Numbered from the stretch's first letter, positions 3,574 through 47,245 are shown. The stretch: DNA of 64,000 bases from Rhodobacterales bacterium (GCA_026400355.1 JAPLPE010000022.1:141507-205506), one strand, 5' to 3'. Notes: generated by a model not told the origin, from the letters alone. Numbers and translations are program-made.

Positions 3574-3650
3574 TGGTACCGCCTCCCTGGCTTGAACAGG
3601 GGACCTCTGGATCCACAATCCAGCGCTCTAACCAACTGAGCTAAGGCGGC
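3574..3650 (-). tRNA. tRNA-His (anticodon GTG), CCA encoded, no encoded G-1, G1-U72, discriminator A73
   Basis: The reverse complement is GCCGCCTTAGCTCAGTTGGTTAGAGCGCTGGATTGTGGATCCAGAGGTCCCCTGTTCAAGCCAGGGAGGCGGTACCA. It folds as a cloverleaf. The anticodon loop is TTGTGGA and the T-arm is CCCTG/CAGGG. The base 5' of G1 is T. Confidence 0.9.
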
Positions 3651-6106: not shown

Positions 6107-6624
6107 GCAGACCCGGAATTGAGAAGGTCGCGGGTAAACCCCACGCCCTTAGACGAGCGGCCCCAACTACGGGAGAGCGCGATCAGGTGCAAGGCCGCAG
6201 CCGCAGCGCCGCCCCCCTTGTTCTGCTGGGCCGGATCGGCCCGCACCTCGGCCTGCGCGATATTCTCGACCGTCAGGATCCCGTTGCCCACACAGAACCC
6301 GGCCAGCCCGAGAGTGGCGATTCCACGCGAAGAGTCATTACAGACCGTGTCGTAATGCGTCGTCTCGCCCCGGATGATGCAACCCAGCGCGACATAGCCG
6401 TCAAAGCTCTGCATCCGCCCGGCGATCCCGATGGCGATGGGTAGTTCCAGCGCGCCCGGCACTTCGGCCAGTTCCCATTCAGCGCCCGCCGCCTCGATTT
6501 CGGCTTTGGCACCTGCGATCAGGTTGTCGGCGATCTCGCGGTAGTAGGGGGCGACCACGATCAGGATCCTGACCGGCTTGTCGAATGTAGGGCGGGGCAG
6601 GGAATAATGCGATTGTCCAGCCAT
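6103..6624 (-). CDS. ribH: 6,7-dimethyl-8-ribityllumazine synthase
   Basis: Contains VPGALELP and GCIIRGETTHYDTV motifs. The ATG at 6624 overlaps the ribBA TGA (TGATG). Confidence 0.93.
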   Translation of the reverse strand: MAGQSHYSLPRPTFDKPVRILIVVAPYYREIADNLIAGAKAEIEAAGAEWELAEVPGALELPIAIGIAGRMQSFDGYVALGCIIRGETTHYDTVCNDSSRGIATLGLAGFCVGNGILTVENIAQAEVRADPAQQNKGGGAAAAALHLIALSRSWGRSSKGVGFTRDLLNSGSA

Positions 6625-7754
6625 CACAGGGTCTCCGATATCTTGCGTGTTCCGACGATCTCAAGGCCATAGGCATCCAGCCCAACGACCCGCGGTTTGG
6701 GCGAGTTGGACAGAAGGACGATCCTGCTTAGCCCCAGCGACGAGAGAATCTGCGCCCCCAGACCGTATTGCCGGAGTGTCTGGGGCGATACATCTTCGCC
6801 CGCGGCAAGTTTCATGTGCACATCGCGCAAGAGCACGACGACCCCCCGACCTTCGGCGCCAATCAAGTTCAACGCATCTGCGAATTCGTGGGCCCGGCCC
6901 TTGTGCCCTGTGCCCACGATATCCAGAAGCGGGTCCAAAGCATGCATCCGCACCAGCACCGGGTCGGGCCCCGCGATATCGCCCTTGATCAATGCGATAT
7001 GCTCGGCCCCCTGCGTTTCGTCTGTATAGATCCGCAGGGTCCAATCACCGCCGAATTCGGAACTGATATTCTGTTCGGTCCGGACCTTGACCAGATTGTC
7101 ATGCCGCCGCCGGTAGGCGATCAGGTCGCTTATCGTCCCGATCTTGAGGTTGTGACGCTGCGCGAAGGCCACCAGATCTGGCAATCGGGCCATAGTCCCG
7201 TCTTCGTTCATGATCTCGCAGATCACGCCCGAGGGGTTCAGCCCGGCCAGACGACTAATGTCCACCGCCGCCTCGGTATGCCCCGCACGAACGAGCACGC
7301 CGCCATCCCGCGCTCGTAGCGGAAAGATATGCCCTGGCGTCGCGATATCCACCGCCCCCCGCGAGGCGTCAATGGCGACCGACACGGTCCGTGCCCGGTC
7401 ATGCGCCGAAATCCCCGTCGACACACCCTCACGCGCTTCGATCGAAACGGTAAACGCCGTCTCGTGCCGGGATGAATTCTGCGAGGCCATCAGAGGCAGG
7501 CCCAACTGGTCAACCCGAGTGCCCGTCAGCGACAGGCAGATCAGGCCCCGGCCATGCATCGCCATGAAGTTGATCGCATTGGGCGTCGCCATCTGCGCAG
7601 GGATGACAAGGTCGCCTTCATTCTCGCGGTCCTCGTGGTCGACAAGGATGAACATGCGGCCGTTGCGGGCATCCTCAATGATGTCCTCAATGGTGCTGAT
7701 GGCATCCGACCAATCGCGCTCGACCGGTCCGGGTTCCTCGAAGGCTATGCTCAT
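6624..7754 (-). CDS. ribBA: Bifunctional 3,4-dihydroxy-2-butanone-4-phosphate synthase / GTP cyclohydrolase II-like protein
   Basis: Contains MFILVDHEDRENEGDLVIPA and HTEAAVDISRLAGL (DHBP synthase), followed by a C-terminal GCHII-like domain. I chose the ATG at 7754 (MSIAFEEPG). Confidence 0.93.
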   Translation of the reverse strand: MSIAFEEPGPVERDWSDAISTIEDIIEDARNGRMFILVDHEDRENEGDLVIPAQMATPNAINFMAMHGRGLICLSLTGTRVDQLGLPLMASQNSSRHETAFTVSIEAREGVSTGISAHDRARTVSVAIDASRGAVDIATPGHIFPLRARDGGVLVRAGHTEAAVDISRLAGLNPSGVICEIMNEDGTMARLPDLVAFAQRHNLKIGTISDLIAYRRRHDNLVKVRTEQNISSEFGGDWTLRIYTDETQGAEHIALIKGDIAGPDPVLVRMHALDPLLDIVGTGHKGRAHEFADALNLIGAEGRGVVVLLRDVHMKLAAGEDVSPQTLRQYGLGAQILSSLGLSRIVLLSNSPKPRVVGLDAYGLEIVGTRKISETL

Positions 7755-7917
7755 GTCTGTCCCTCTGGCGTCAGGGCGCAAATAGCCCCTGCACCGGCCT
7801 TTGCAAAGGGGAAAGCCACCCGGTCGGGAGCCTGCACTGATGAACAGACGGGCTGCGGCGGCGCAGGGTTGGCGTGAGCCATGCGGTCACTTGCATCGGC
7901 CAGGGACAGCCCCCTCA

Positions 7918-8128
7918 TTGAGCGGGATCAGCGGGGCCTCCAGTGGAGGCACCGCCCCACTCACGACCCGCCGACTCCACCTCCCACCGTTCCGCCAACA
8001 CAACAGAAAGTCGGCTCCTGCCCCGGCGGAGCCCCTGCCCTCTGGGGGGCAGGGGCTGGCCGAAAGCGGGGTGTCCGGCATGAATGTGCCCCTCGCAGCG
8101 CGTGACCAAGGCGACTGTCTTGGTCAAA
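7918..8128 (-). repeat. Copy A of a three-member intergenic structured element (candidate ncRNA or 5' UTR element upstream of ribBA)
   Basis: Shares two modules with the copies at 14339..14494 and 33808..34027. One is a 45-nt 3' module, GRGCGGTGCYTCCACTGGAGGCCCCGYTGATCCCGCTC. The other is a 5' hairpin, TGACCAAG-N8-CTTGG. Substitutions keep pairing on the minus strand only. Confidence 0.6.
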
Positions 8129-8204
8129 TCAAGAACCGGCTTGGACCTGTCGGGTGCGCTTCAGCGCACCATCGCCAGGCAACCTGCGCCAAAGAACAAA
8201 GCGC

Positions 8205-8780
8205 CTAACCTGCCAGCCCGCCAAAATACCTGTCGCCCGTCAGGAACCCGGCCGTCTTGCCCGCTTCGGCCCATTCCCGCTCCAGCGGGGTCTCTCCGAT
8301 CACCAGATACCCGTCAGAAGGCCGCCCGCGTGACAGGATGATCGCCCGTATCTGATCCCGCATCGCAACCCAGCTTTCTGTCGACCGTGGCGCAGGAGAA
8401 GCCGCATCCAGAACCCCGGCCTCCAACACCGCGTCCAAAGACAAAGGCGGCTGAACCACCGCCGTCCGGTCTGCCCCCACCAGAGCCGCCAGCCGCGACA
8501 CCCGATCAGACGGCAGCGCCTGCCCGTCGCACAGCACCCGCAGCGCGTTTGACGAAAACAGGAACCCGATCACATCCCGCCCCGTCGCAGCCCGCACCCC
8601 GGCATAGGTCCTGTAGGGCAGCCCGAGTTGCTGCGCCCGCTTCACCCGCAGTCGCAAAACTTCAATGGGCAGCGTAGGCAAAAGGCTTTCTCGTGCCCGG
8701 TTCCAGGCGAAGCGGCGCCAGCTTGTCTCGCCCTCGAATTCCGGCCCATTGTTGTGCCCGATCCCCGCGATCATTCCCAT
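8205..8780 (-). CDS. Conserved hypothetical protein embedded in the rib operon
   Basis: ORF 8205..8906. The ATG at 8780 (MGMIAGIGHNNGPEF...) overlaps the ribE stop (ATGGGAATGA), which suggests translational coupling. No family recognised. Confidence 0.55.
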   Translation of the reverse strand: MGMIAGIGHNNGPEFEGETSWRRFAWNRARESLLPTLPIEVLRLRVKRAQQLGLPYRTYAGVRAATGRDVIGFLFSSNALRVLCDGQALPSDRVSRLAALVGADRTAVVQPPLSLDAVLEAGVLDAASPAPRSTESWVAMRDQIRAIILSRGRPSDGYLVIGETPLEREWAEAGKTAGFLTGDRYFGGLAG

Positions 8781-9373
8781 TCCCGCAACCGCGCGACATA
8801 GCGCGCCATCGTGTCGATCTCGATATTCACCAGATCGCCGACCTTGGTCTGACCCCAGGTCGTTACCTGCTTGGTGTGAGGGATGACGTTGATCCCAAAG
8901 GAACAACCCTCGACCTCGTTCACGGTCAGCGAAGTCCCGTTCAGCGCTACGGAACCCTTGGAGGCGATGAACTTCGCCAGGGCCTCTGGCGCATTGAACA
9001 CCATCCGCGTGCTTGACCCTTCATCCAGCAGCGATGTCACTCGCGCCACACCATCCACATGGCCCGAGACGATATGTCCGCCCAACTCGTCACCCAACTT
9101 CAGCGCCCGTTCCAGATTGATCCGCTGCCCCACCTGCCAATGGTTGTGTCCGATGTTGGTCTTGCCCACCGTCTCGGCCGAGATTTGCACGTCGAACCAG
9201 TTGCGCGGGCTTTTGCCCAGCGCCACGACCGTCAGACAGACGCCGTCGCAGCAGATCGACGCGCCGATATCGATATGATCCACGTCGTAATGCGTGCCAA
9301 TCCGAGCCCGCAGATCGTCCTCGGTCTGCGTCTCGAGCACTTCGCCAACGTCGGTAATGATCCCAGTGAACAT
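8771..9373 (-). CDS. ribE: Riboflavin synthase alpha chain
   Basis: MFTGIITDVGEV...SICCDGVCLTV...GHIVSGHVDG...SVALNGTSLTVN shows two lumazine-binding repeats. The ATG at 9373 has GAAAGGGGA upstream. Confidence 0.92.
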   Translation of the reverse strand: MFTGIITDVGEVLETQTEDDLRARIGTHYDVDHIDIGASICCDGVCLTVVALGKSPRNWFDVQISAETVGKTNIGHNHWQVGQRINLERALKLGDELGGHIVSGHVDGVARVTSLLDEGSSTRMVFNAPEALAKFIASKGSVALNGTSLTVNEVEGCSFGINVIPHTKQVTTWGQTKVGDLVNIEIDTMARYVARLREWE

Positions 9374-9576
9374 TGTAGGTCCCCTTTCGCGCCAGAGGTA
9401 ATGGGTTGCCCGCCAAGGGGCAAGCCGCCCCGCCCCGACAGCGAGGTCGCGCGGACAAGCGTCCCGGCCCGTTGCGCATTCGCGACTTTCAACCTTACAC
9501 TCGCCTTCCTGCCTCAATTGTGCTAATTCTTTTGCGTATCCTCCTTCGGATTGAATTCCGCCCCGGACATGACAGA

Positions 9577-10875
9577 GTGACCGCCGTTCCGACAGACTGC
9601 CCGACGCACCAGTTCCTTTTCCTTCAGGGGCCGCATGGGCCGTTCTTTCACCGGCTTGCCCAAATGCTCCGCAAGGCAGGTGCCGAGGTCTGGCGTGTTG
9701 GCTTCAACGCAGGCGACCGCGCCTTCTGGTTCGGAAGCTACGGCTACATCCCCTACCGCGGCACGCCTGAAGACTGGCCGTCGACCATCGCAGCACTTCT
9801 TGCCGAAAAGCAGATTACAGATATCGTGCTCTACGGCGATACCCGTACAATCCACGCGCAGGCGGTGGATGCGGCCCGCGCCCAGGGCATCACCGTTCAT
9901 GTCTTTGAAGAAGGCTACATGCGCCCCTGGTGGGTGACTTATGAACGCGGCGGCACCAACGGCAATTCGCGCCTGATGGACATGACCGTCGCCGACATGA
10001 CCCGCGCGCTCGAAATGTCCGATCTTGACGTGCCCGAACCGCCTGCCCGCTGGGGCGACATGCGCCAGCATGTGTTCTACGGCGCACTCTACCACTGGTT
10101 CGTTCTGTTCAGGAATGGCGATTACCGCCATTTCCGCCGCCACCGCGACCTGCCTCTGGTGACCGAGACCTGGCTCTATACCAAGCGCCTCATCCTCATG
10201 CCGTACTTCGCGCTACAGCGCAGGATGGCCACAGCTCGGATCAAATACGGCGGCTTTCCCTATCACCTTGTCCTGCTGCAATTGGAACATGACTCTAGTT
10301 TCCGGAAGCACTCGCCCTTCACCTCGATGGCAGAATTCCTTGACATTGTGATCGACGGCTTTGCCAAAGGTGCCCCCCGCCACCACCACCTTGTCTTCAA
10401 GGCCCACCCGCTTGAAAACGGCCGCTCTCCCCTCTGGCGCACCATCCGGGAAATGGCCGAAGCAAAAGGCGTGCGCGACCGCGTCCACTATGTCGGCGGC
10501 GGCAAACTGGCGCGTCTTCTCGACCATGCCCGGACCGCTGTCACTGTGAACTCGACCGCCGCCCAGCAGGTTCTCTGGCGGGGCATCCCGCTCAAGGTCT
10601 TTGGCCGTGCCGTCTATGCAAAGCCCGAATTCGTGGCAACCGGCGCGTTGCCCGATTTCTTTGCACAGCCCGGCCGCCCCGATACCCGCGCCTACAAAGA
10701 TTACCGCCGCTACCTTCTCGAAACGTCACAGGTGCCCGGCGGCTTCTACTCCGCCCGGAGTCGCCGTCAGCTTCTCCGGCAGGTTGTGGACATGATGCTC
10801 TCGGACGAAGATCCTTATGACGCCCTCAAATCCGGCAAGGCCGCCCCACGGCAACCCTTGCGGATCGTGAAGTAG
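9577..10875 (+). CDS. kpsS: Capsule biosynthesis protein KpsS-like (single Capsule_synth domain, beta-Kdo transferase family)
   Basis: Contains FLFLQGPHGPFF...VHVFEEGYMRPWW...LLQLEHDSS...TVNSTAAQQ. The start is uncertain; GTG at 9577 is my choice. The ORF track extends to 9406, but that extension does not look like protein. Confidence 0.75.
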   Translation: MTAVPTDCPTHQFLFLQGPHGPFFHRLAQMLRKAGAEVWRVGFNAGDRAFWFGSYGYIPYRGTPEDWPSTIAALLAEKQITDIVLYGDTRTIHAQAVDAARAQGITVHVFEEGYMRPWWVTYERGGTNGNSRLMDMTVADMTRALEMSDLDVPEPPARWGDMRQHVFYGALYHWFVLFRNGDYRHFRRHRDLPLVTETWLYTKRLILMPYFALQRRMATARIKYGGFPYHLVLLQLEHDSSFRKHSPFTSMAEFLDIVIDGFAKGAPRHHHLVFKAHPLENGRSPLWRTIREMAEAKGVRDRVHYVGGGKLARLLDHARTAVTVNSTAAQQVLWRGIPLKVFGRAVYAKPEFVATGALPDFFAQPGRPDTRAYKDYRRYLLETSQVPGGFYSARSRRQLLRQVVDMMLSDEDPYDALKSGKAAPRQPLRIVK

Positions 10876-11038
10876 CGCCCACAACTCCTTGCGCTTCGCT
10901 CGTGGCGGCAGTCCTTGAAAGCGGCAGGCCTGCAACAGTCCGGCCCATCCCCGCCCCCCGGCTAGCTTTTGGCCATGAATTCCGATACGCTAAAAGAAAA
11001 AGTTGAGGCAAGCAATAACAGGTCGAGGAGACCGAGCA

Positions 11039-12175
11039 GTGACAACCCCGATAAAACGCCCCTCAAAGGGCGTGGTGGCCGTTGCGATTCTAGTCTTTCT
11101 GGCCGCATGCGGCCTGCCCAGCACCGGCCCGAACAAAGCCCAGATCTTTTCCGGTTCTGTCATGGAACAGGGCGATGCCTTCGTCCTAACCGTCGATGAC
11201 CGTGTCAACCAGATCGCCGGCGTGACCCCCTCTCTGGGCTTTTCCTCCAGCTTTCAGGATGCGGGCCTGCTTGGGTCGGACACGATCCAACCGGGTGACG
11301 TCCTTGGCCTGACGGTCTGGGAAAACGTAGATGACGGCTTGCTTGTTCCGGCCGGGGCAAACGCGACCAGCCTTGACGAGGTCCAGGTCGATGGCGAAGG
11401 CTTCATCTTTGTCCCTTACGCGGGTCGCATTCGTGCAGCCGGCAACTCGCCCGAAGCAATCCGGCGCATCATATCGGAAAAACTCACCGAACAGACCCCA
11501 GATCCCCAGGTCGAAGTGAACCGCCTTGCCGGCGACGGAGCGACTGTGTCGGTCGTGGGATCGGTCGGCGCACAGGGCGTGTTCCCGATTGAACGCCCGA
11601 CGCGGACGCTAGGTGCCATGCTGGCGCAGGCCGGCGGTATCACGATCCGGCCCGAAATCGCCAAGGTGACGGTCAACCGTGGCGGACAGATCGGCACCGT
11701 CTGGTTCCAGGATATCTACAGCGGCCCCGGCTACAACATCGCGCTGCGCGGCGGTGACCAGATCGTAGTCGAGGAAGACACCCGCGCCTTTACCGCCCTT
11801 GGCGCGACCGGCACGCAGAGCCGGATCGTGTTCCAGAGCCAGACCATCTCGGCGATCGAGGCGCTGGCGCAGGTCGGCGGTCTGAATACCCTGACCGCTG
11901 ACCCGACAGGCGTCTTCGTGTTCCGCAACGAACCCGAACGGATCGCGCAGCAGTTGGTCGGCGACCCGAGCCTCATGGGCACCCAGCGCGTGATCTATGT
12001 CCTCGACCTGACCAAGCCCAACGGCATGTTCATGGCGCGAGATTTCGCGATCCGTGACGGCGACACCGTCTATGTGACCGAAGCGCCCTACACTCAGTTC
12101 GCCAAGGTGCTGGCCGCCTTCTCGGGATCGCTGGTCTCGGTCGGCAACGTTGCGGCGGTTGGCCAGGGGTTCTGA
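11039..12175 (+). CDS. Outer-membrane polysaccharide export lipoprotein (OPX; Wza/KpsD-like)
   Basis: Has the lipobox VFLAAC, a Poly_export-like N-domain (IQPGDVLGLTVWE) and SLBB-like repeats. The GTG at 11039 has GAGGAG 8 nt upstream. Confidence 0.85.
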   Translation: MTTPIKRPSKGVVAVAILVFLAACGLPSTGPNKAQIFSGSVMEQGDAFVLTVDDRVNQIAGVTPSLGFSSSFQDAGLLGSDTIQPGDVLGLTVWENVDDGLLVPAGANATSLDEVQVDGEGFIFVPYAGRIRAAGNSPEAIRRIISEKLTEQTPDPQVEVNRLAGDGATVSVVGSVGAQGVFPIERPTRTLGAMLAQAGGITIRPEIAKVTVNRGGQIGTVWFQDIYSGPGYNIALRGGDQIVVEEDTRAFTALGATGTQSRIVFQSQTISAIEALAQVGGLNTLTADPTGVFVFRNEPERIAQQLVGDPSLMGTQRVIYVLDLTKPNGMFMARDFAIRDGDTVYVTEAPYTQFAKVLAAFSGSLVSVGNVAAVGQGF

Positions 12176-12178
12176 CCC

Positions 12179-14239
12179 TTGGCTCCGTCTGACGGGACAT
12201 CCTCTGAAAATGACAGTGCCGCAGGGGAAACCCCGCGGCGTCTTTTCGTCTACAACGGCGGTTTCCTGACGCAGGGCCGCGTCCGCCGCATCCTGTCCTT
12301 GTCCGGTTACGACATCCGCCTTGGCCGCCCCGGCCCCGACGACATGGTCGGCGTCTGGGGCCAAAGCCCGTCGAGCCCCCGGGGCGAGGCCGTCGCCGCC
12401 TGCACCGATACCCCCATCCTGCGCGTCGAGGACGCCTTCCTCCGCTCCGTCCTGCCCGGCCGCGACGGTGAGCCGCCTCTTGGCCTTATCCTCGACAGTA
12501 CCGGCGTCCATTTCGACGGTTCCGCGCCGTCCGACCTCGAAATCCTGCTCGCCACCCATCCACTTGACGACCCCGGCCTACTGTCGCGTGCCAGCCTCGC
12601 CATGGCTCGGTTGCAGCGCGGTCATCTGTCAAAATACAATGCCTTTGACCCCGCGCTGCCAGGCCCCCCGCCCAACTTTGTCCTTGTCATCGACCAGACG
12701 CGCGGCGACGCCTCGGTCCGCGCTTCGGGCGCTGACGAGACCACCTTCTGCGCGATGCTCGCCGCCGCTCGCGCCGCCCATCCCGGCGTACCTGTTGTCA
12801 TCAAGAGCCACCCCGAAACCACCGCTGGCCACCGCCCTGGGCATTTCACGCCCGCCGAATGCGATGCCACCACAACATTTCTGACCGATCCGATCAGCCC
12901 CTGGACTCTGCTCGCCGGGGCCTCTGCTGTCTACACCGTCAGTTCCCAACTCGGGTTTGAGGCGATCCTTGCCGGTCACCGACCCCATGTCTGGGGCCAG
13001 CCCTTCTATGCCGGTTGGGGGCTGTCCCATGACCGCCACCCCAACCCGCGTCGTGCGCGCACCCTGACCCGCCCGCAACTCTTCGCCACCGCGATGATCC
13101 TTTACCCCCGCTGGTATGACCCTGTCCTCGACCGCCTCTGTTCCCTTGAAGACGCCATCGCAACGCTCGAAGCGGAAACGCGGGCATGGCGCGAGGATCA
13201 CAGGGGCTGGGTCGCAACCGGCATGCGCCTCTGGAAGCAAAAGCGACTTCAGTCCTTTTTCGGCGGCCAACGGCCAGTTCGTTTCATCGAACCCGCCCCA
13301 AAGGCCATCGCCGCCGCCAAAGATCACGGCCTCATGGTCTGGTCCAACCAGATCACACCGGACCTTGATGCCGCAGGTGCCTGCCGTCTTGAAGACGGAT
13401 TCCTGCGCTCCTGCGGCCTCGGCGCCGATCTGATTCCTCCCCTCTCGCTTTGCCTCGACGACCTTGGCATCTACTACGACCCGACCTGTCCCAGCCGGCT
13501 AGATGCCCTGATCGCCGCAAGCACCGTCCTCCCCGAGGACGCCCGCACCCGCGCCGATCGCCTGATCTTGATGCTGACAAAAGAGGGGCTGTCCAAGTAC
13601 AACCTCGACGGCGCGCCTCTTCCCCTCGGCCTACCCGCAGGTCGTCGCATCCTTGTGCCGGGTCAGGTCGAGGATGACGCCTCCATCCGCCATGGTGCCG
13701 CCGACATCCGCACCAACCGCGCCCTGCTCGAAGCTGCCCGCAAGGCCAACCCCGCCGCAGTGATCCTGTACAAGCCCCACCCTGATGTAGAAGCTGGCCT
13801 GCGCCCCGGCATCGTCCCGGATGCCGCAACTTTGGCGGACGCCGTCCTGGACCGAACCAACCCAATTGCCGCTCTTTCGGCCGTAGAACAGGTATGGACT
13901 ATCACTTCCACCCTCGGGTTCGAGGCGCTCCTGCGCGGCAAACGCGTGACCTGCCTTGGCCACCCGTTCTACGCTGGCTGGGGTCTGACCGACGACCGAG
14001 CGGGCCCGCTGCCGCGCCGTACAGCCCGCCCCGACCTGACGGCCCTCGCTCACGCTGTTCTGATCGACTACCCCCGCTATTTCGACCCCGTTACCCGCCG
14101 CCCCTGCCCGCCAGAGGCGATTGTCCACCGCCTCGCGACTGGCACGGTCCCAGAGCCTTCACGAGCCAATCGGTCGCTTGCAAAACTGCAAGGGCTGCTG
14201 GCGGGACAGGCGCATCTCTGGCGGAAGAAGGGACGATAG
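12179..14239 (+). CDS. kpsC: Capsule biosynthesis protein KpsC-like (two tandem Capsule_synth domains)
   Basis: 686 aa with a duplicated VIKSHPE/LYKPHPD...SSQLGFEA/TSTLGFEA...PFYAGWGL architecture. The TTG start at 12179 lies 4 nt after the OPX stop and is uncertain. Confidence 0.85.
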   Translation: MAPSDGTSSENDSAAGETPRRLFVYNGGFLTQGRVRRILSLSGYDIRLGRPGPDDMVGVWGQSPSSPRGEAVAACTDTPILRVEDAFLRSVLPGRDGEPPLGLILDSTGVHFDGSAPSDLEILLATHPLDDPGLLSRASLAMARLQRGHLSKYNAFDPALPGPPPNFVLVIDQTRGDASVRASGADETTFCAMLAAARAAHPGVPVVIKSHPETTAGHRPGHFTPAECDATTTFLTDPISPWTLLAGASAVYTVSSQLGFEAILAGHRPHVWGQPFYAGWGLSHDRHPNPRRARTLTRPQLFATAMILYPRWYDPVLDRLCSLEDAIATLEAETRAWREDHRGWVATGMRLWKQKRLQSFFGGQRPVRFIEPAPKAIAAAKDHGLMVWSNQITPDLDAAGACRLEDGFLRSCGLGADLIPPLSLCLDDLGIYYDPTCPSRLDALIAASTVLPEDARTRADRLILMLTKEGLSKYNLDGAPLPLGLPAGRRILVPGQVEDDASIRHGAADIRTNRALLEAARKANPAAVILYKPHPDVEAGLRPGIVPDAATLADAVLDRTNPIAALSAVEQVWTITSTLGFEALLRGKRVTCLGHPFYAGWGLTDDRAGPLPRRTARPDLTALAHAVLIDYPRYFDPVTRRPCPPEAIVHRLATGTVPEPSRANRSLAKLQGLLAGQAHLWRKKGR

Positions 14240-14338: not shown

Positions 14339-14494
14339 CTGAGCGGGATCAACGGGGCCTCCAGTGGAAGCACCGCTCCGATCACACCCCATCGGCCCCG
14401 TCGCACATACCTCATTAAGGTCAAGCCCTCGTTGGGGCGTCCAGCCGGAGAGCGACCCTTGCGCCGCGCGCCCAAGACAATGGTCTTGGTCAAT
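14339..14494 (-). repeat. Copy B of the three-member structured element (between the convergent kpsC and ribD ends)
   Basis: The plus strand reads GAGCGGGATCAACGGGGCCTCCAGTGGAAGCACCGCTC at 14341-14378. The hairpin CCAAGAC-AATG-GTCTTGG-TCAA is at 14472-14493. Confidence 0.6.
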
Positions 14495-14539: not shown

Positions 14540-15631
14540 CTACCCCCGCACCCACCGGTGCATCACATCCCCGCCCAGATCCCGCACCTCTGCCAACTGC
14601 AGCCTTGGCGCTTCGGCCAAGGCCTCGACCCCAAGCGCCCCTACCATCGGAATCCCTTCAGCCCCGAGCATCAGCCCGGCACTGAACATTACCAGTTCAT
14701 CCACCAGTCCGGCGCTTAGAAGCGAGGCTGCGAGCCCCCCGCCACCCTCACAGAACACCCGCGTCAAACCCTGCGCCCCCAGTGCCTGCAACACTGACCT
14801 CGGTTCCACCTGCGCATCTGCAACATCGCAGGCCAGACAGACGGCCCCCCGCGCCTCCCACGCCGCAGTTCCTGCGGCACCGGCCCCATGGCAGATCCAC
14901 AGCGGCACCTCGCGCGCCGTCCGCGCAAGTTGACCATTGAACGGAATATCCAGATGCCGCGACACAACCACCCGCACCGGCTGCAGATCGATCCCGAGGC
15001 CTCGCACGGTCAACGCGGGATCATCCGCACGCGCAGTCCCTCCACCCAACATCACCGCATCATGACGCGCCCGCATCGCATGCACAATCCGCCGTGCCGA
15101 AGGCCCTGTGATCCACTGGCTCTCTCCCGAAGCTGTCGCGATCCGACCGTCGAGTGAGGCCGCGAGTTTCAGCGTCACTACGGGTCGCCCTGCTGTCACC
15201 CGCCGAAGGAAACCCTCGTGATCAGCGACAGCCTCCGCTTCCATCACCCCGGTCTCGACCATGATCCCCGCTGACCGCAGCATTGCGATCCCACGCCCCG
15301 CTACGCGCGGATCAGGATCACCTGCCGCCACAACAACCCGTTCCACCCCTGCAGCGATCAGTGCCTCAGCACAGGGCGGTGACTTGCCATGATGGGAACA
15401 GGGCTCCAGCGTCACATAGGCCACCGCCCCCCGCGCAGACACACCGGCCTGCGCCAATGCCTGCGTTTCTGCGTGAGGCCGCCCGCCGTCCGCGGTCCAC
15501 CCACGACCGACGATCCGCCCATCAGCAACAATCACACATCCCACCGCAGGATTGGGCCAGACCCGCCCCATCCCTCGCCGTCCCAGCGACAGGGCCAGCG
15601 TCATGAAGCGTCGGTCTTTGGCCTCGTTCAC
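14540..15631 (-). CDS. ribD: Bifunctional riboflavin biosynthesis protein RibD (deaminase/reductase)
   Basis: Contains [16 protein letters not shown] and [14 protein letters not shown] (CMP/dCMP deaminase zinc site), plus a RibD_C domain. The GTG at 15631 overlaps the nrdR TGA (GTGA). An alternative ATG is at 15604. Confidence 0.93.
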
Positions 15632-33349: not shown

Positions 33350-33730
33350 TCAGGGCAGTTTCGCCATCAGCTCGATCTCGATTTTCATCGCAGGTTCCAT
33401 GAGACCAGCCTGGATCATTATCGCGGCGGGGCGGGCCTTGGCAAAGGCTTTGGATGTGTGGGGCCAGCAGGCCGGAAAATCAGACCGGTCGGGCAGGACA
33501 TAGGTCACGCGAACCACGTGGTCGAGCGAAGTGCCCGCCTCTTCCAGAACGCGGGCGATGGTGGCGAGCGCGTTGGCGCATTGGTCGGCCACGCCCTCGG
33601 GCATGGTCATGGTGGCGTAGTCGTAGCCCGTGGTGCCCGCGACAAAGACCCAACCATCCGTGACGACGGCGCGAGAGTAGCCGATCTGGGCCTCGAACGG
33701 CGATCCGGTGGAGATGAGGCGGCGGGACAT
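33350..33730 (-). CDS. RidA/YjgF-family protein
   Basis: MSRRLISTGSPFEAQIGYSRAVVTDGWVFVAGTTG...IEIELMA. Confidence 0.85.
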   Translation of the reverse strand: MSRRLISTGSPFEAQIGYSRAVVTDGWVFVAGTTGYDYATMTMPEGVADQCANALATIARVLEEAGTSLDHVVRVTYVLPDRSDFPACWPHTSKAFAKARPAAIMIQAGLMEPAMKIEIELMAKLP

Positions 33731-33807: not shown

Positions 33808-34027
33808 TTGAACGGGATCTGGGGGGATTCTAGTGGAAGCACCGCCCCGCTCGCGCTCTACCGTTTCCATCGGCCCGAGTTCCTTATTCATCACCGGAGG
33901 TCGGGGTCGGCCATGGCGGGGGCGAAGCACCCGCCATGCCGCGGAGCGGGCAATGACCGGGACGCTAAGGCGTCCCGGTCGGAAAGTGCCACTGTTGCCA
34001 AGTCACCAGGGCGATCGGCCTGGTCAG
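33808..34027 (-). repeat. Copy C (most diverged) of the three-member structured element, upstream of the RidA-family gene
   Basis: The minus strand carries GAGCGGGGCGGTGCTTCCACTAGAATCCCCCCAGATCCCGTTC and the 5' hairpin CTGACCAGG-N8-CCTGG. In that hairpin the CCAAG/CTTGG pairing is replaced by CCAGG/CCTGG. Confidence 0.5.
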
Positions 34028-34144
34028 CAGGGCAAATTGGATTCTTGAGAAAGTGCTAGGTAGACGTTCCCGGTCTCCAGTCTCCCTTGCCGACCAAGAT
34101 CAGGAGTGGTTCGGTTCGGCACACACCCTTTGAGGAGTTCCCAG

Positions 34145-34540
34145 ATGGATCACTTCCCCGCCGGATCGCGCCTTTCAACAATGGGACCGGCCCACTGGTT
34201 CACGGGCAAGGTCACCATGACCCCCGTGATCGAGGCTCCTGCACCCGCGCGAGTGCGTGCGGCACTTGTCACTTTTGCCCCGGCCGCGCGGACCCACTGG
34301 CACACGCATCCGCTGGGCCAGACGATCCATATCCTGTCAGGCCAAGGGCGGGCGCAGCGGGAAGGCGGCCCGGTCATCACTATTTGCCCCGGCGACACCG
34401 TCTGGTTCGCCCCCGGTGAGAGGCATTGGCATGGCGCAGGGCCAAATGGACAGATGACCCATCTTGCCTTTCAGGAGGCAGAGAACGGGACGGCCGTGAC
34501 TTGGGCGGAACCGGTGACGGATACGCAGTTCACGGGCTAA
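34145..34540 (+). CDS. Cupin-domain protein
   Basis: Contains HWHTHPLGQTIHILSG...WFAPGERHWHGA. The ATG at 34145 has GAGGAG upstream. Confidence 0.75.
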   Translation: MDHFPAGSRLSTMGPAHWFTGKVTMTPVIEAPAPARVRAALVTFAPAARTHWHTHPLGQTIHILSGQGRAQREGGPVITICPGDTVWFAPGERHWHGAGPNGQMTHLAFQEAENGTAVTWAEPVTDTQFTG

Positions 34541-43237: not shown

Positions 43238-46200
43238 TCAGGTGACGACGTGAATCTCCTCGTCGATGATGACAGTGCCTCCATGCGCGCCGAAGTCGTA
43301 AATCTTGTAGGCCCGGCCATCGATGTCCGTGGTTTCGCCCGAGTCGCTGGCACCAAGGATCGTGACCGTGTCATCGACCCCGCCGTGAACGGTAAGCGTG
43401 TTGGAATGGCTGCACAGTGCCTCGAGATCCTGCGCGGTCAGGGTCAGATGGCTATCCTCGGCGAACTGGAGGTCGATGGCTTCGATGTTGAAACCCGACA
43501 GGCCCGCGTTGCGGACGTCGACCGTATTGGTCAGAGGTTCCTCAAGCACAAACAGTGTCGAGGTGTTGTTGTCCGCCTCATCCGTCGAGGTAATGACAAG
43601 GTGCGAGCCGTTCGGGATCGGCTTGGTAAAGCTGTAGTCGATTTCGTTGAAGTCTGTGTTCACGCTGGTGTTGAAGCTCGCGTGGCTGACTGTGCCCGTG
43701 GCCGCGACCGAGTGGATTTCGACCGTGTCGTCGGTGATCGAGGTCGAGATTGCTCGGACCCCTGCCCCGGCGCGGGTGTAGCTTTCGATGAGCGGCGCTT
43801 CGGGCGGGGTCGTGTCCACCGCAATGGTTTCGGTGATCGACTTCGCGTTTCCCACGGAATCCGTCGCTTCGACCTTGATTGCGGCGTCATATTCGCCCTG
43901 TGGCACCTCGGCCCCGGTGAAGTTGACGGTCCAGGAACCGTCGGCGGCCACCGTCGCCTGACGGGTCGTGCCTTCGAAGGTGACAAAAACGGTCGAGCCT
44001 GCCTCGACCTCGCCGTTGATGGTGATGCCGTCCTGCGCTTCGACCCGGTTGACAACGTCATCCCCTTCAATGAGGCGATCCATGCTGAGTTCGTTGACGA
44101 ACGTATCGATCCGCACCGTATGGGTGATGACCGAGGAATTGCCGGCCTTGTCGGTAGCTGTGGCAGTGAAGCTCTGGTTGTATTCCCCTGCGGCGACTGC
44201 GGCGGCCGGCACGGTCAGCGACCATGTGCCATCGGCATTGGCGGTTACAGTCTGGGTCGAGCCACCATAGACGACGGTAACCCGCGACCCGGCCTCGACC
44301 GTGCCGGAAAGCTGGACGCCGTTCGATGCCTCGGCCGCGTTGAGGGTGTTGTCGCCTTCGACGTGCTTGTTGAGGGTGAAGCTGATTTCGGTATCTACGG
44401 CCACACTGTCGCTGACGGTTTTGGAGTTGCCGGCGCTGTCAGTGATCGAGGCAGTTATCGGCGCGTTGTAGGTGCCCGACGGGATTTCCCCAGCGGCAAA
44501 GAGTGACGACCACGTTCCATCGGGACCAGCAACGACCTGATGCGATTTGCCACCCAGCGTGACTGTGACTGTCAGACCAGGAGTGGCGGTGCCTTCGATC
44601 AGTACGCCGTCGCTGCGTTCTGTTGCATTGATCACATCGTCGATTTCGATGGGATCGGGGGATAGTGCCACTTCGCCTACGACCGTATCGATGAGCACAT
44701 CCTGCGAGATCGAGGCGGCGTTGCCAGCCTTGTCAGTCGCAGCGACGGTGATCTCGGTCGCATACTCGCCGAGCGGCAGGCTGCCCGCCGGGAAGGTGAC
44801 GGTCCAGTTGCCGTTGCCGGCCACGGTCGCGTTGTAGGACACGCCGGCCAGCGTCACGACCACGGTCGAGCCCTGTTCGACGACACCGTTGATGGTGACG
44901 GGTGCTGCGGCCTCAGCCTTGTTGATGATGTCGTCGCCGCCGACCTCTCCGCTCGTGATGTCAAGACGGTTGACGAAGGTATCGACCTTGACCGAGCCGG
45001 TGGCCATGGCGCTGTTGCCTGCGGCGTCGGTGGCGGTTGCGGTCACGGCGGCGGTGGTTTCGCCGGTCGGGATATCGTTCTTGCCAAAGCTGGCAGACCA
45101 GTTGCCGTCATCGCCGGCTGTCACGGTGCGGCTGGCCGAACCGAACCTGACGACGACCGAAGCACCCGCCTCCGCCTGTCCGGTCAGCGTGACGCCGTCC
45201 TCGCGTTCGACATAGTTGATCGTGCCGTCGCCTTCGAAATTGGCCGTGTTGACCGTAACCGAGGTTTCGGTATCCACCTGCAGGGTGATCGTGGCGCTGG
45301 AACTGTTGCCGTTGGCGTCGACCGCATTGGCGATGGCAGTCGTTTCGTAGGTGCCTGGTGCCACGGCTGTCGCCGGAAAGGAAACCGTCCAGGTGCCGTT
45401 CGGGGCAACCGTCGCGGCAAGTGTCGCGCTACCGAAAGTGACGATTACGGTCGAACCGGGTTCGGTCGTGCCTGTCAGGACGACACCGTCCGAGCGTTCG
45501 GAGGCGTTGATCACGTTGTCGCCTTCGACAGGCGCATTGATCGCCACTCGGGCTTCGCTGTCGATCATTATGCTGGCGTTCACTATGGCGGTGTTCCCCG
45601 CCGCATCGACTGACGACACGGCAATCGGCGCCTCATGGGTGCCGGGCGGGATCTCAGCGGCGGAATAGACGACTTTCCACGTCCCGTTCGCGGCTGTAAC
45701 GGCGGTATGGGTCACGCCGCACATTTCGACCGTCACGGTCGATCCGGGGTCGGATTTGCCGGTGATCGCCACGCCATCCGACCGCTCGGCAGCATTGACG
45801 ATGCCATTGGCCTCGACCGTAGCGGCATTCACCGTCAGGGTCAGGTCGGTATCGACCTTGATCGTGCCGCCGGTACTGGCTGTGTTGCCAGCGGCGTCGG
45901 TGGCGACGGCGGTGACGGTTTGGCCATAGGTGCCGCCGGGAATCTGCCCAGATGCAAATGAGGCAGTCCACGTGCCGTTGTTGGCGGCGATGACAGTCGT
46001 ATTTGCGCCGCCGATGGTGACGAGGACACTGGCCCCCGCCTCGGCCGTGCCGGTCACGGTCACGCCACCCGCATGTTCGACGGCATTGACCGTGCCGTCG
46101 CCGCCAATGGCGCCGGTGTTCATCGTGATGCTGGTTTCGGTATCGACGGTAAAGCTGCCTTCGGTCGTGGCGATGTTGCCATGGGCGTCTGTCGCCTCGA

Positions 46201-47245
46201 CCGTCACGGCCTGCTGGTATTCGCCGTCGATCACGGCGTCGGCAGGCAGGGCCACTGTCCAGGTCGTGCCGTCAACCGCCGCCTCATAGGTCACACCGCC
46301 CGTGGTGACGAAGACGGTCGATCCCACCTCTGTCGTGCCGGTCAGGATGACGCCACCCACTTCGGCCGCGTTGACTGTGCCGTCGCCGCCGACCGAATCT
46401 TCGACAAAAGTGACGCTCGCTTCGGTATCGACGACAAGCGTGTCAGTGATCGTCAGATCCTGACCATCCTTTGAGACGATGACAATGACGGGTTCCTCAT
46501 AAGTGCCCGGACCCACCTCATCCGTCGGGAAGGTGACGGACCAGGTCCCGTCCTCGCCGATAACGGTGGTCTGGGTGTCGTCACCGACGGTGACAGTGAC
46601 CGTCGCGCCGACGGTGCCGGTCCCGGTGATCTCGGTCCCGTCAGCCTGGTCTTCAGCATTGACGACGTAGCCCGTGTCCTTGGTCCCGCTCAGGATGGTT
46701 CCTTCGGGTGTCGGGGGATCCCGGGTTTCGCTGCTGTCCAGAACGGTCGTCCCGGCACCGACACCGATCAGGCTGAGCAGCGGAAGGATGACCGCAGGTG
46801 CTGCGAAGGGGACGAGCATGCCTGCAGCAGGATCGTCGGCGGCTGCGGTGACGATCGGTTCCTCGCGGCCCGCAAACAGAAGCTGGTCATCCGGACTCCA
46901 TTTGCCCGTCATGTCTTCGGCGATGTAGTTGGAATAGAACGTGCCGTTCGGACCGGGCACAAGTTCGACTTCGGCCAACTGGCCGTTGGCAGAAATGAAC
47001 AAGTCGGCTTGAGACGTCCCGCCGGGGCCAAAAAAGTTGTCGACGTAGATAACCTGGCCATCGACAAGTGTGATCTTGAGAGCACCTCCCGCTTGTTCGT
47101 ACGACACGATCTGGTCGCGGTCGAGGTTGAGCGAAACCTGAGAGCCGGAACCAACGATCAGTTGCGTAGTGATCCCGTCACCGCCAACAGACCCATGCTG
47201 GATTGCGCCCACACTATTGCGGACAACGAAATCAATCGCTGACAT
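43238..47245 (-). CDS. Large repetitive T1SS-secreted adhesin (BapA-prefix-like N-domain, 10 Ig-like repeats, VC_A0849-type C-terminal secretion domain)
   Basis: 1335 aa. The N-terminus has ITLVDGQVIYVDNFF. Ten units of about 96 aa end in VDT(E/D/F). The C-terminus reads LTLTAQDLEAL...LTVHGGVDDTVTILGA...GRAYKIYDF...VIIDEEIHVVT. It is the first gene of the T1SS operon. Confidence 0.9.
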   Translation of the reverse strand: MSAIDFVVRNSVGAIQHGSVGGDGITTQLIVGSGSQVSLNLDRDQIVSYEQAGGALKITLVDGQVIYVDNFFGPGGTSQADLFISANGQLAEVELVPGPNGTFYSNYIAEDMTGKWSPDDQLLFAGREEPIVTAAADDPAAGMLVPFAAPAVILPLLSLIGVGAGTTVLDSSETRDPPTPEGTILSGTKDTGYVVNAEDQADGTEITGTGTVGATVTVTVGDDTQTTVIGEDGTWSVTFPTDEVGPGTYEEPVIVIVSKDGQDLTITDTLVVDTEASVTFVEDSVGGDGTVNAAEVGGVILTGTTEVGSTVFVTTGGVTYEAAVDGTTWTVALPADAVIDGEYQQAVTVEATDAHGNIATTEGSFTVDTETSITMNTGAIGGDGTVNAVEHAGGVTVTGTAEAGASVLVTIGGANTTVIAANNGTWTASFASGQIPGGTYGQTVTAVATDAAGNTASTGGTIKVDTDLTLTVNAATVEANGIVNAAERSDGVAITGKSDPGSTVTVEMCGVTHTAVTAANGTWKVVYSAAEIPPGTHEAPIAVSSVDAAGNTAIVNASIMIDSEARVAINAPVEGDNVINASERSDGVVLTGTTEPGSTVIVTFGSATLAATVAPNGTWTVSFPATAVAPGTYETTAIANAVDANGNSSSATITLQVDTETSVTVNTANFEGDGTINYVEREDGVTLTGQAEAGASVVVRFGSASRTVTAGDDGNWSASFGKNDIPTGETTAAVTATATDAAGNSAMATGSVKVDTFVNRLDITSGEVGGDDIINKAEAAAPVTINGVVEQGSTVVVTLAGVSYNATVAGNGNWTVTFPAGSLPLGEYATEITVAATDKAGNAASISQDVLIDTVVGEVALSPDPIEIDDVINATERSDGVLIEGTATPGLTVTVTLGGKSHQVVAGPDGTWSSLFAAGEIPSGTYNAPITASITDSAGNSKTVSDSVAVDTEISFTLNKHVEGDNTLNAAEASNGVQLSGTVEAGSRVTVVYGGSTQTVTANADGTWSLTVPAAAVAAGEYNQSFTATATDKAGNSSVITHTVRIDTFVNELSMDRLIEGDDVVNRVEAQDGITINGEVEAGSTVFVTFEGTTRQATVAADGSWTVNFTGAEVPQGEYDAAIKVEATDSVGNAKSITETIAVDTTPPEAPLIESYTRAGAGVRAISTSITDDTVEIHSVAATGTVSHASFNTSVNTDFNEIDYSFTKPIPNGSHLVITSTDEADNNTSTLFVLEEPLTNTVDVRNAGLSGFNIEAIDLQFAEDSHLTLTAQDLEALCSHSNTLTVHGGVDDTVTILGASDSGETTDIDGRAYKIYDFGAHGGTVIIDEEIHVVT
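43808..46702 (-). repeat. Ten tandem coding repeats (about 290 nt each) encoding Ig-like adhesin domains
   Basis: The recurrent pattern is V(N/I)xAE...GVxLTGTxExGSTVxVTxG...GxWTVxxPA...G(E/T)Y...ATDxAGNxx...VDT. Confidence 0.85.

Follow-up and report, generated by a model that had tools for sequence, protein, structure and literature searches.

Rickettsia palindromic elements (RPE), which are AT-rich and 100–150 bp long, can insert in frame into protein-coding genes and be tolerated there. The palindromic repeats Bru-RS1 and Bru-RS2 of Brucella were reportedly described by Halling and Bricker in 1994. These are ~103–105-bp palindromes of two related types with many copies (PMC3163539, PMC10800456), and they are preferred as an insertion site by IS711 (PMC2266754). 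Repetitive extragenic palindromes (REPs) are classified by a GTAG or CGTC tag, conserved and unpaired, at one of their ends (PMC3733652), and the largest group of the REP-associated tyrosine transposases (RAYTs) is rare in Alphaproteobacteria (PMC5581495). Here we analyze a three-copy intergenic element in a 64,000-nt stretch of an uncultured Rhodobacterales bacterium from a lineage near Yoonia, Loktanella and Octadecabacter (GCA_026400355.1, JAPLPE010000022.1:141507–205506; henceforth the window, with positions counted from its first letter). A sequence-only reading of the window had proposed this element as a candidate new structured RNA family.

Our analysis indicates, with a probability that we put at roughly 80%, that each of the three loci holds a copy of a mobile DNA repeat from Rhodobacterales that is non-coding, mosaic and palindromic, resembling the REP sequences and bacterial interspersed mosaic elements (BIMEs), BOX or small non-autonomous transposable elements. 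This Rhodobacterales repeat family has apparently not been described so far. Its presence or absence between close Rhodobacterales genomes makes it improbable that the element is a regulatory RNA dedicated to the riboflavin or RidA genes.

A covariance model built on the 3' module of the element (R1) recovers only three copies in the window, at 62.1 (copy A), 52.4 (copy B) and 47.9 bits (copy C; E = 5e-13 to 2e-9), the next match, at 17 bits, being a palindromic echo of copy A. A degenerate 18-mer of the module likewise has three minus-strand matches in the window against 0.29 expected by chance, and R1 found zero copies outside sites A, B and C in ~55 kb from relatives. All three copies are intergenic minus-strand sequences of common architecture, which bears out the sequence-only reading in the location (7918–8128, 14339–14494 and 33808–34027), common orientation and quoted module sequences of the copies. 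Read 5' to 3', each has a 24-nt 5' hairpin (H1), variable GC-rich hairpins and a 3' module of ~43 nt (previously given as ~45 nt), with H1 and the module as the alignable parts and a variable, GC-rich middle. A full element of ~210–250 nt comprises H1, two to three deletable GC-rich hairpins, a variable spacer and a terminal 42-nt unit. When compared with shuffled sequence, folding stands out clearly only for copy A (z = -3.7); the z-scores of copies B and C are -0.4 and -1.9. The copies and their parts are as follows (numbers with the prefix L denote the related loci).

7917..8126, minus strand: copy A, a full composite with full-length homology to L173, L174, L176, L177, L182, L188 and others
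8103..8126, minus strand: H1 of copy A, TGACCAAGAC-AGTC-GCCTTGGTCA, whose minus-strand fold has a single A-C mismatch
8059..8079, minus strand: hairpin H2 of copy A, GCCGGACACCCCGCTTTCGGC, aligning to CCGGTAAGCCCCGCTTACCGG and CCGGGACGCC..GCGTCCCGG of the homologues
8030..8058, minus strand: hairpin H3 of copy A, CAGCCCCTGCCCC-CCAGA-GGGCAGGGGCT, which differs in other copies (CAGCGCCCGCCCC..GGCGGGCGCT)
8010..8024, minus strand: duplicate of the 3' arm of H3 in copy A, GGGGCAGGAGCCGAC, kept as GGGGCAGGCGCTGACC in homologues; it may allow an alternative pairing with the 5' arm of H3
7920..7962, minus strand: 3' module of copy A, with a GAGTGGG/CCCGCTC outer helix, an 8-bp variable stem, the TCCACTGGA apex and a TGAT bulge
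7917–7958, minus strand: the 42-nt unit proper of copy A
14339..14494, minus strand: copy B, a deletion variant without H2 and H3 (H1 at 14469–14492, module at 14341–14383)
33808..34027, minus strand: copy C, a full composite in which the module has decayed (H1 at 34003–34026, module at 33810–33852)

The family extends well beyond the window. Among the matches listed in a public-genome scan with the pattern TCCACTRGA-N9-GATCCCGYT, most are from Brucella and Ochrobactrum and several from Rhodobacterales, and a stricter pattern applied to metagenomes gave 11 loci. End-to-end homologues of copies A and C (~160–250 nt; L173, L174, L176, L177, L182, L183, L081, L148, L152, L164 and L188) adjoin unrelated genes in other Rhodobacterales contigs and keep the hairpins with changed sequence, for instance with TGACAGGCCC..GGGCCTGTCA as the arms of H1 against TGACCAAGAC..GCCTTGGTCA in the window. 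On plasmids, blastn with copy B gave no match and with a Brucella-type consensus only six records without a full-length relation, indicating that the unit is not one of the abundant Sinorhizobium/Rhizobium plasmid repeats. Of two scans of viral contigs, the first gave mostly chance matches plus four Brucella-type copies and the second none. These four copies lie between a structural-looking gene and the next open reading frame (ORF) in IMG/VR 'viral' contigs (L007:2190–2250; also L022, L026 and L040), which probably represent Brucellaceae prophage or gene-transfer-agent regions. A literature search on sequence strings returned nothing relevant.

Comparison of orthologous sites reveals insertion polymorphism between close relatives. 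In L190/L191, which share the window's gene order and have a RibBA of 90% identity, sites A and B are both empty, the gaps measuring 124 nt between the hypothetical gene and ribBA and 5 nt between ribD and the capsule gene. In the 94%-identical relative L188, the gap upstream of ribBA measures 890 nt and holds three tandem composites; in two further relatives the region upstream of ribBA is free of the element. The leader-like position that the sequence-only reading had noted upstream of ribBA is thus empty in one relative and tripled in another. Site C has an orthologous copy in the relatives L195–L199, one of which (L198) shows a 62-nt deletion. Identity there is 67–75% inside the element and 57–81% in the flanking non-coding DNA, so that copy C diverges about as fast as its intergenic surroundings, and its module in the window carries five uncompensated changes.

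The terminal 42-nt unit (GGGG, 7–8 nt, TCCACTGGA, 8 nt, TGATCCCGCTCA(CC)) is found across Alphaproteobacteria and also occurs as a separate insertion (solo form GGGG-N7-TCCACTGGA-N8-TGATCCCGCTCACC), with exact 42-nt boundaries at two independent sites. One is a Cereibacter IS110-family transposase gene (L075), in which the unit lies in sense orientation and than which the Pseudosulfitobacter homologue is shorter by exactly 42 nt; here the unit adds an in-frame stop codon, and excising GGGG...CTCACC restores the conserved RQ(L/F)(F/A)AWLGLTP. The other is the OrfA of an IS3-family element (the L062 group), in which the unit is antisense; at that point the homologues of Ralstonia and Bosea lack exactly 14 codons and read ILA(K/I)A(A/N)AWFARE. 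Neither of these two filled/empty comparisons shows a target-site duplication. Further solo units lie at an IS3 OrfA N-terminus, within a gap between genes and in a truncated short-chain dehydrogenase (SDR) gene. On the left, 5/5 independent solo insertions (L062, L075, L087, L178 and L179) are flanked by YGTTCGC, which in three of them reads GGCGTTCGC; the right flanks are unrelated, and the target is not duplicated. Solo units end in CTCACC and follow GTTCGC, whereas the module of the composite ends in CTCA and follows GGTGAGC, the complement of the 3' tail of the solo unit. Brucella and Ochrobactrum carry the unit nested within two related ~100-bp palindromic repeat subfamilies, of which it forms the core. 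An IS91-like targeting of GTTC was considered and rejected, as the protein alignments and the SDR case set the boundary after GTTCGC.

The stems of the element are kept by compensatory change. The family supports a module fold with a GAGYGGG/CCCGCTC outer helix and an 11-bp inner stem with the TGAT bulge on its 3' side, in place of the GGGCGG:CCGCTC register proposed earlier for the outer helix. Across 31 diverse modules 88.5% of cells are paired in this fold, against 71.3% in shuffles, and 8/11 pairs of the inner stem change on both sides (99 cells versus 35 in shuffles); for H1, 92% of cells are paired across the family and 7/10 pairs change on both sides. The compensatory change from CCAAG/CTTGG to CCAGG/CCTGG in H1 and the C-G, U-G, U-A series at one inner pair (columns 15/25), both reported in the sequence-only reading, are correct. 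Compensation in the module consists almost entirely of full Watson-Crick swaps: the inner stems of 52 distinct modules have 384 Watson-Crick pairs, 6 G-U, 10 A-C and 16 other mismatches. Folding of 16 composites on the module strand and its complement differs by a mean of 2.7 kcal/mol in favor of the complement (Wilcoxon p = 0.40), with 91 versus 81 G-U pairs between the strands. Copies A and B do fold 12–13 kcal/mol better on the minus strand, but most relatives do not, nor does copy C, for which folding favors the plus strand (-108 vs -96 kcal/mol). As G-U pairs are no commoner than A-C and the strands fold equally well, the earlier claim that base pairing is kept on the minus strand only fails for the family, although a few positions in A and B agree with it. 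Nor does every wobble fit the minus strand, as witnessed by the A-C mismatch in H1 of copy A and the uncompensated changes in the module of copy C. Covariation of this kind is equally compatible with hairpins of single-stranded DNA.

The orientation of the unit relative to genes is likewise mixed. In a census of 79 distinct unit copies, with genes called crudely from ORFs, 24 copies lie in convergent gaps, 8 in divergent gaps and 16 co-oriented plus 9 anti-oriented in tandem gaps, the rest being inside ORFs (13, some of these ORFs likely spurious) or at locus edges (9). Convergent gaps hold 24/57 of the intergenic calls and all 6 distinct metagenome composites. Within genes the unit is found both in sense (IS110) and in antisense (IS3). 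Homologues therefore occur in both orientations and without a strand-specific wobble pattern, an outcome that the sequence-only reading had itself named as telling against its proposal. What stands of that proposal is a conserved multi-hairpin family with strong covariation; strand specificity, a fixed position and a single orientation do not hold, and on these three points, orientation, strand pattern and positional conservation, an RNA role is disfavored.

The gene identities at the three sites were confirmed with Pfam. Copy A lies between a hypothetical gene (8205–8906) and ribBA (6624–7754), within a ribE-hyp-ribBA-ribH-nusB operon; copy B lies in the convergent gap of ribD (14540–15631, minus) and a capsule-synthesis gene (12179–14239, plus); and copy C lies in the divergent gap of a RidA-family gene (33350–33730, minus) and a cupin gene (34106–34540, plus). 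The distance from element to gene start is 164 nt for ribBA and 78 nt for RidA, in agreement with the 165 nt and about 80 nt given before. Closer to ribBA there is one native block outside the element:

7752..7811, minus strand: ribBA-proximal block, CCCCTTTGCAAA-N17-TATCTGCGCC...GAGGGACAGAC-ATG, the middle box also being given as TATTTGCGCC

This block is kept in the window, L188, L189 and L190, with or without the element, and lies downstream of the element in the window and L188, which places the element upstream of the native control region rather than within a leader. Its layout looks promoter-like, and a promoter consensus scan did not call it. No intrinsic terminator (a GC-rich hairpin with a U-tract) was found in 7650–8300, where the module is followed by AATGAGGGGG, and the scan found no promoter or terminator consensus signature for the element.

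Several other features of the window were recorded alongside. A small hairpin, GGTGCGC-TGAA-GCGCACC (8152–8176, minus), with a similar one in the same place in L188, separates the hypothetical gene from copy A; it may be a small repeat in its own right or belong to the transcript of the upstream gene as its 3' end. Genes for the synthesis and export of capsule polysaccharide (9406–14239, plus) lie on the opposite strand between ribD and ribE, splitting the usually contiguous nrdR-ribD-ribE-ribBA-ribH-nusB cluster, as they do in the relative L190. A very large ORF of 291-nt periodic DNA repeats with bacterial Ig-like domains (43238–47245, minus; Pfam Big_13 and Big_6) is probably a surface adhesin. 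A tRNA gene (3577–3650, minus) is the sole Rfam match at the gathering threshold in the window. The GC skew of the window is noisy, and replication direction is not readable from it.

Insertion sequences (ISs) are recurrent neighbors of the unit. The IS3-family element with the antisense, in-frame unit (L062:2934–2976; also L088, L092, L147 and L162) has at least five copies, all diverged, within a single metagenome-assembled genome, and its unit sits exactly at the OrfA/OrfB frameshift site. Its homologues read GCA AAA GCC there, with an A AAA G slippery motif, whereas this element reads GCA ATA G followed by the hairpin, the motif being lost. It is a speculative thought that the hairpin may take over the recoding of OrfAB in this still-proliferating IS3 without A AAA G. 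A general role of the hairpin as an IS3 frameshift stimulator was rejected on account of units at other positions and in other genes, as was the removal of the hairpin to fuse OrfA to OrfB, the insert being 42 nt and in frame. Elsewhere, an IS3 end lies at the 5' edge of a unit in Cypionkella (L073:7094–7135), an IS407-like left end lies at the 5' edge of a unit on the Paracoccus pantotrophus plasmid pPAN1 (L200:1490–1540), and an IS1595-like transposase gene interrupts H1 of a composite (L102:699–741). Insertion sequences seem to be drawn to the unit hairpins, in line with what is reported of IS711 and Bru-RS. In L178:7651–7693 (and equally in L180 and L181) the unit lies in a truncated duplicate of an SDR N-terminus (MRGKTVIITGATSGIGE / unit / ANAMKV...stop); its position directly upstream of the intact gene suggests a rearrangement junction.

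We then compared the element with the described classes of small structured and mobile sequences. At the gathering threshold, Rfam returned only tRNAs from the window and related loci, in keeping with the earlier failure to match the element to any known RNA family, and in E-value mode it returned only chance-level matches apart from a partial one to RF02604 (BASRCI153, the Brucella small RNA (sRNA) CI153). This match to the module scores 15.7 bits (E = 0.19, against a gathering threshold of 137 bits) and spans only model positions 22–74, a quarter of the model, with the UCCACUGGA apex and CUGAUCCCGCUUC foot in common; among the copies of the Brucella repeat, one is probably overlapped by the RF02604 entry. 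A hammerhead or other small ribozyme, suggested by conserved nucleotides beside variable stems, was rejected because the core motifs are absent and Rfam gave no match, and a tRNA-like T-arm or integration-site remnant because there is no tRNA-like fold. Neither strand of the unit or its immediate flanks has the GTAG or CGTC tag of a tagged REP. A classical MITE (miniature inverted-repeat transposable element) is excluded by the lack of terminal inverted repeats, the 5' end TTGACCAAGGCC being unrelated to the reverse complement of the 3' end TGAGCGGGATCA, and of a target duplication. Against a full-form IS200/IS605 element or palindrome-associated transposable element (PATE), H1 bears no likeness to the 3' unit and none of the loci seen has a full-length copy with tnpA/tnpB; only the solo unit inserts 3' of a fixed short motif and leaves no duplication, no shared target motif being found beside H1 of the composites. 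A Pfam scan of 54 window ORFs had no transposase among the best 25 of 65 families; elsewhere, the sequence covered consisted of 8-kb pieces around the copies. From the REP/BIME class the element has the imperfect palindromes, the extragenic location and the compensated stems (three copies per 64 kb), as well as mosaic or tandem arrays (L188 and the nesting in Brucella); from the structured RNAs it has covariation, without strand specificity or a conserved position and orientation, only site C being conserved. As it is neither a tagged REP, a MITE, a terminator nor a member of any Rfam family, we place it in the broad class of small palindromic mobile repeats, with no named family.

A minus-strand structured non-coding RNA, be it an sRNA or a cis-acting leader, that acts on ribBA, the RidA-family gene and others is in our judgment very unlikely. 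It would account for the strong covariation, the better minus-strand folding of copies A and B, the retention of copy C upstream of RidA in related species and the weak likeness of the module to RF02604, and the absence of an Rfam match would make it new. However, there is no family-wide strand bias; a syntenic relative has neither site A nor site B filled, and another relative has three copies at site A; the element sits upstream of the conserved ribBA-proximal block; inside genes as well as in tandem gaps, the core unit is found in either orientation; copy C evolves like its flanking DNA while its module decays; and no promoter or terminator signature was found. Similarly, the 200–250-nt multi-hairpin body, with its conserved terminal hairpin and sharp 3' end (...GCTCA), could recall the remnant of an RNA-guided or hairpin-ended IS, such as an IS200/IS605 PATE with an omega-RNA-like scaffold or an IS110 bridge-RNA-like region, the body being the former guide-RNA scaffold. 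The insertion of the solo unit after a fixed short motif without duplication also suits this origin, which we nonetheless hold to be very unlikely: no locus has a full-length copy with tnpB, iscB, tnpA or an IS110 gene between the ends, Rfam gives no match to HEARO, IS605-orfB or similar families, no common target lies beside H1, and the nearby IS3, IS110 and IS1595 elements are interrupted by or inserted into the repeat rather than bounded by it.

More in keeping with a mobile repeat, and in fact compatible with it while adding a function, is adoption by the host, with the repeat serving as an mRNA 3'-end stabilizer, an RNase barrier, an operon decoupler or a site for a nucleoid or topology protein, as reported for the REP/BIME of Escherichia coli. 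The enrichment in convergent, that is 3'-end, gaps, both among the intergenic calls and in the metagenome composites, would be expected under such adoption, but neutral tolerance of insertions predicts it too. Copy A and the L188 triplet lie co-oriented inside the rib operon, copy C persists across species with one compensatory change in H1, and the apex TCCACTGGA is a perfect DNA palindrome that would suit a dimeric protein; on the other hand, there is no U-tract, both orientations occur, old copies decay and no binding protein is known. We consider host adoption rather unlikely.

As for the mobile repeat, the unit inserts precisely after YGTTCGC without duplicating its target, into intergenic DNA, other repeats and genes alike. 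The stems would be kept by compensatory changes because the mobilizing machinery would recognize a folded single-stranded hairpin, presumably through its conserved apex, asymmetric TGAT bulge and conserved foot, with single-stranded DNA as the likely substrate. The most likely candidate for the mover would be an HUH/Y1-type transposase of the RAYT or IS200/IS605-like kind. The siting beside ribBA, ribD and the RidA gene would then be incidental, and any barrier at mRNA 3' ends or polarity in the rib operon a by-product.

Several points weigh against the element being a mobile repeat of this kind. No transposase or mobilizing enzyme was identified, and the HUH/RAYT step is suggested by just three features, the hairpin, the fixed 5' target and the lack of duplication. 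We know of no characterized IS200/IS605-type substrate as small as a 42-nt single hairpin, and the composite has neither similar hairpins at its left and right ends nor a shared target at its 5' end. The copy count is that of a 64-kb window of a metagenome contig, not of the whole source genome. Site C is retained across species, with a compensatory A-T to G-C change in H1 in the window lineage, which fits some structural selection after insertion, and the overlap of RF02604 with part of a Brucella copy, weak as the match is, suggests that some copies are transcribed. It is also conceivable, though we think it rather unlikely, that the 42-nt hairpin is itself an unrecognized ultra-small, target-specific mobile element of Alphaproteobacteria, moved by a single-strand (HUH-like) or new enzyme, with the ~230-nt composite as its carrier form; its length of 14 codons would let it sit in frame within genes.

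These findings remove a false lead, in that the element is probably neither a riboswitch nor a leader of the riboflavin operon or the RidA gene. They also indicate that the terminal 42-nt hairpin, common to the classic Brucella repeats as matched by description, moves independently, its target being defined and its boundaries precise. This could offer an entry point to the enzyme by which REP-like DNA is moved in Alphaproteobacteria, and it helps explain why such hairpins draw insertion sequences. Recognition of these repeats can avert their annotation as sRNAs, and the filled and empty sites between close relatives are useful strain-level markers.

Among the known systems, the ends of IS200/IS605 elements and PATEs (HUH Y1) share with the solo unit a hairpin with an asymmetric bulge and insertion 3' of a fixed short sequence without duplication; however, the solo unit has only one hairpin, no tnpA/tnpB is associated and the end hairpins of the composite are unlike each other. 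The modular build, with conserved 5' and 3' modules, a variable internal number and deletion variants, is reminiscent of BOX of Streptococcus pneumoniae, ERIC, Correia/NEMIS and RUP, from which the element differs in lacking terminal inverted repeats and target duplication and in its unrelated sequence and host. With the RAYT-mobilized REP/BIME of Gammaproteobacteria and their hairpin-forming REP doublets (REPINs) it shares short, GC-rich, mostly extragenic imperfect palindromes with compensated stems, mosaic or tandem clusters, differences between close relatives alongside some vertically inherited copies, and a role as favored targets of insertion sequences; unlike these, it has no tag and no identified RAYT gene, and its 42-nt unit, with the TCCACTGGA apex and TGAT bulge, also inserts precisely inside ORFs. 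The 14-codon insert in the IS3 OrfA parallels RPE as an in-frame palindromic insertion in Alphaproteobacteria, without sequence similarity. The recovered Brucella/Ochrobactrum repeats fit the published description of Bru-RS1 and Bru-RS2, to which they may correspond. With them only the 42-nt core is common, H1–H3 of Rhodobacterales being unrelated; yet these two ~100-bp palindromic subfamilies, with their many copies, carry the very core of the window's module, and in other genera insertion sequences insert beside that core, much as IS711 does at Bru-RS.

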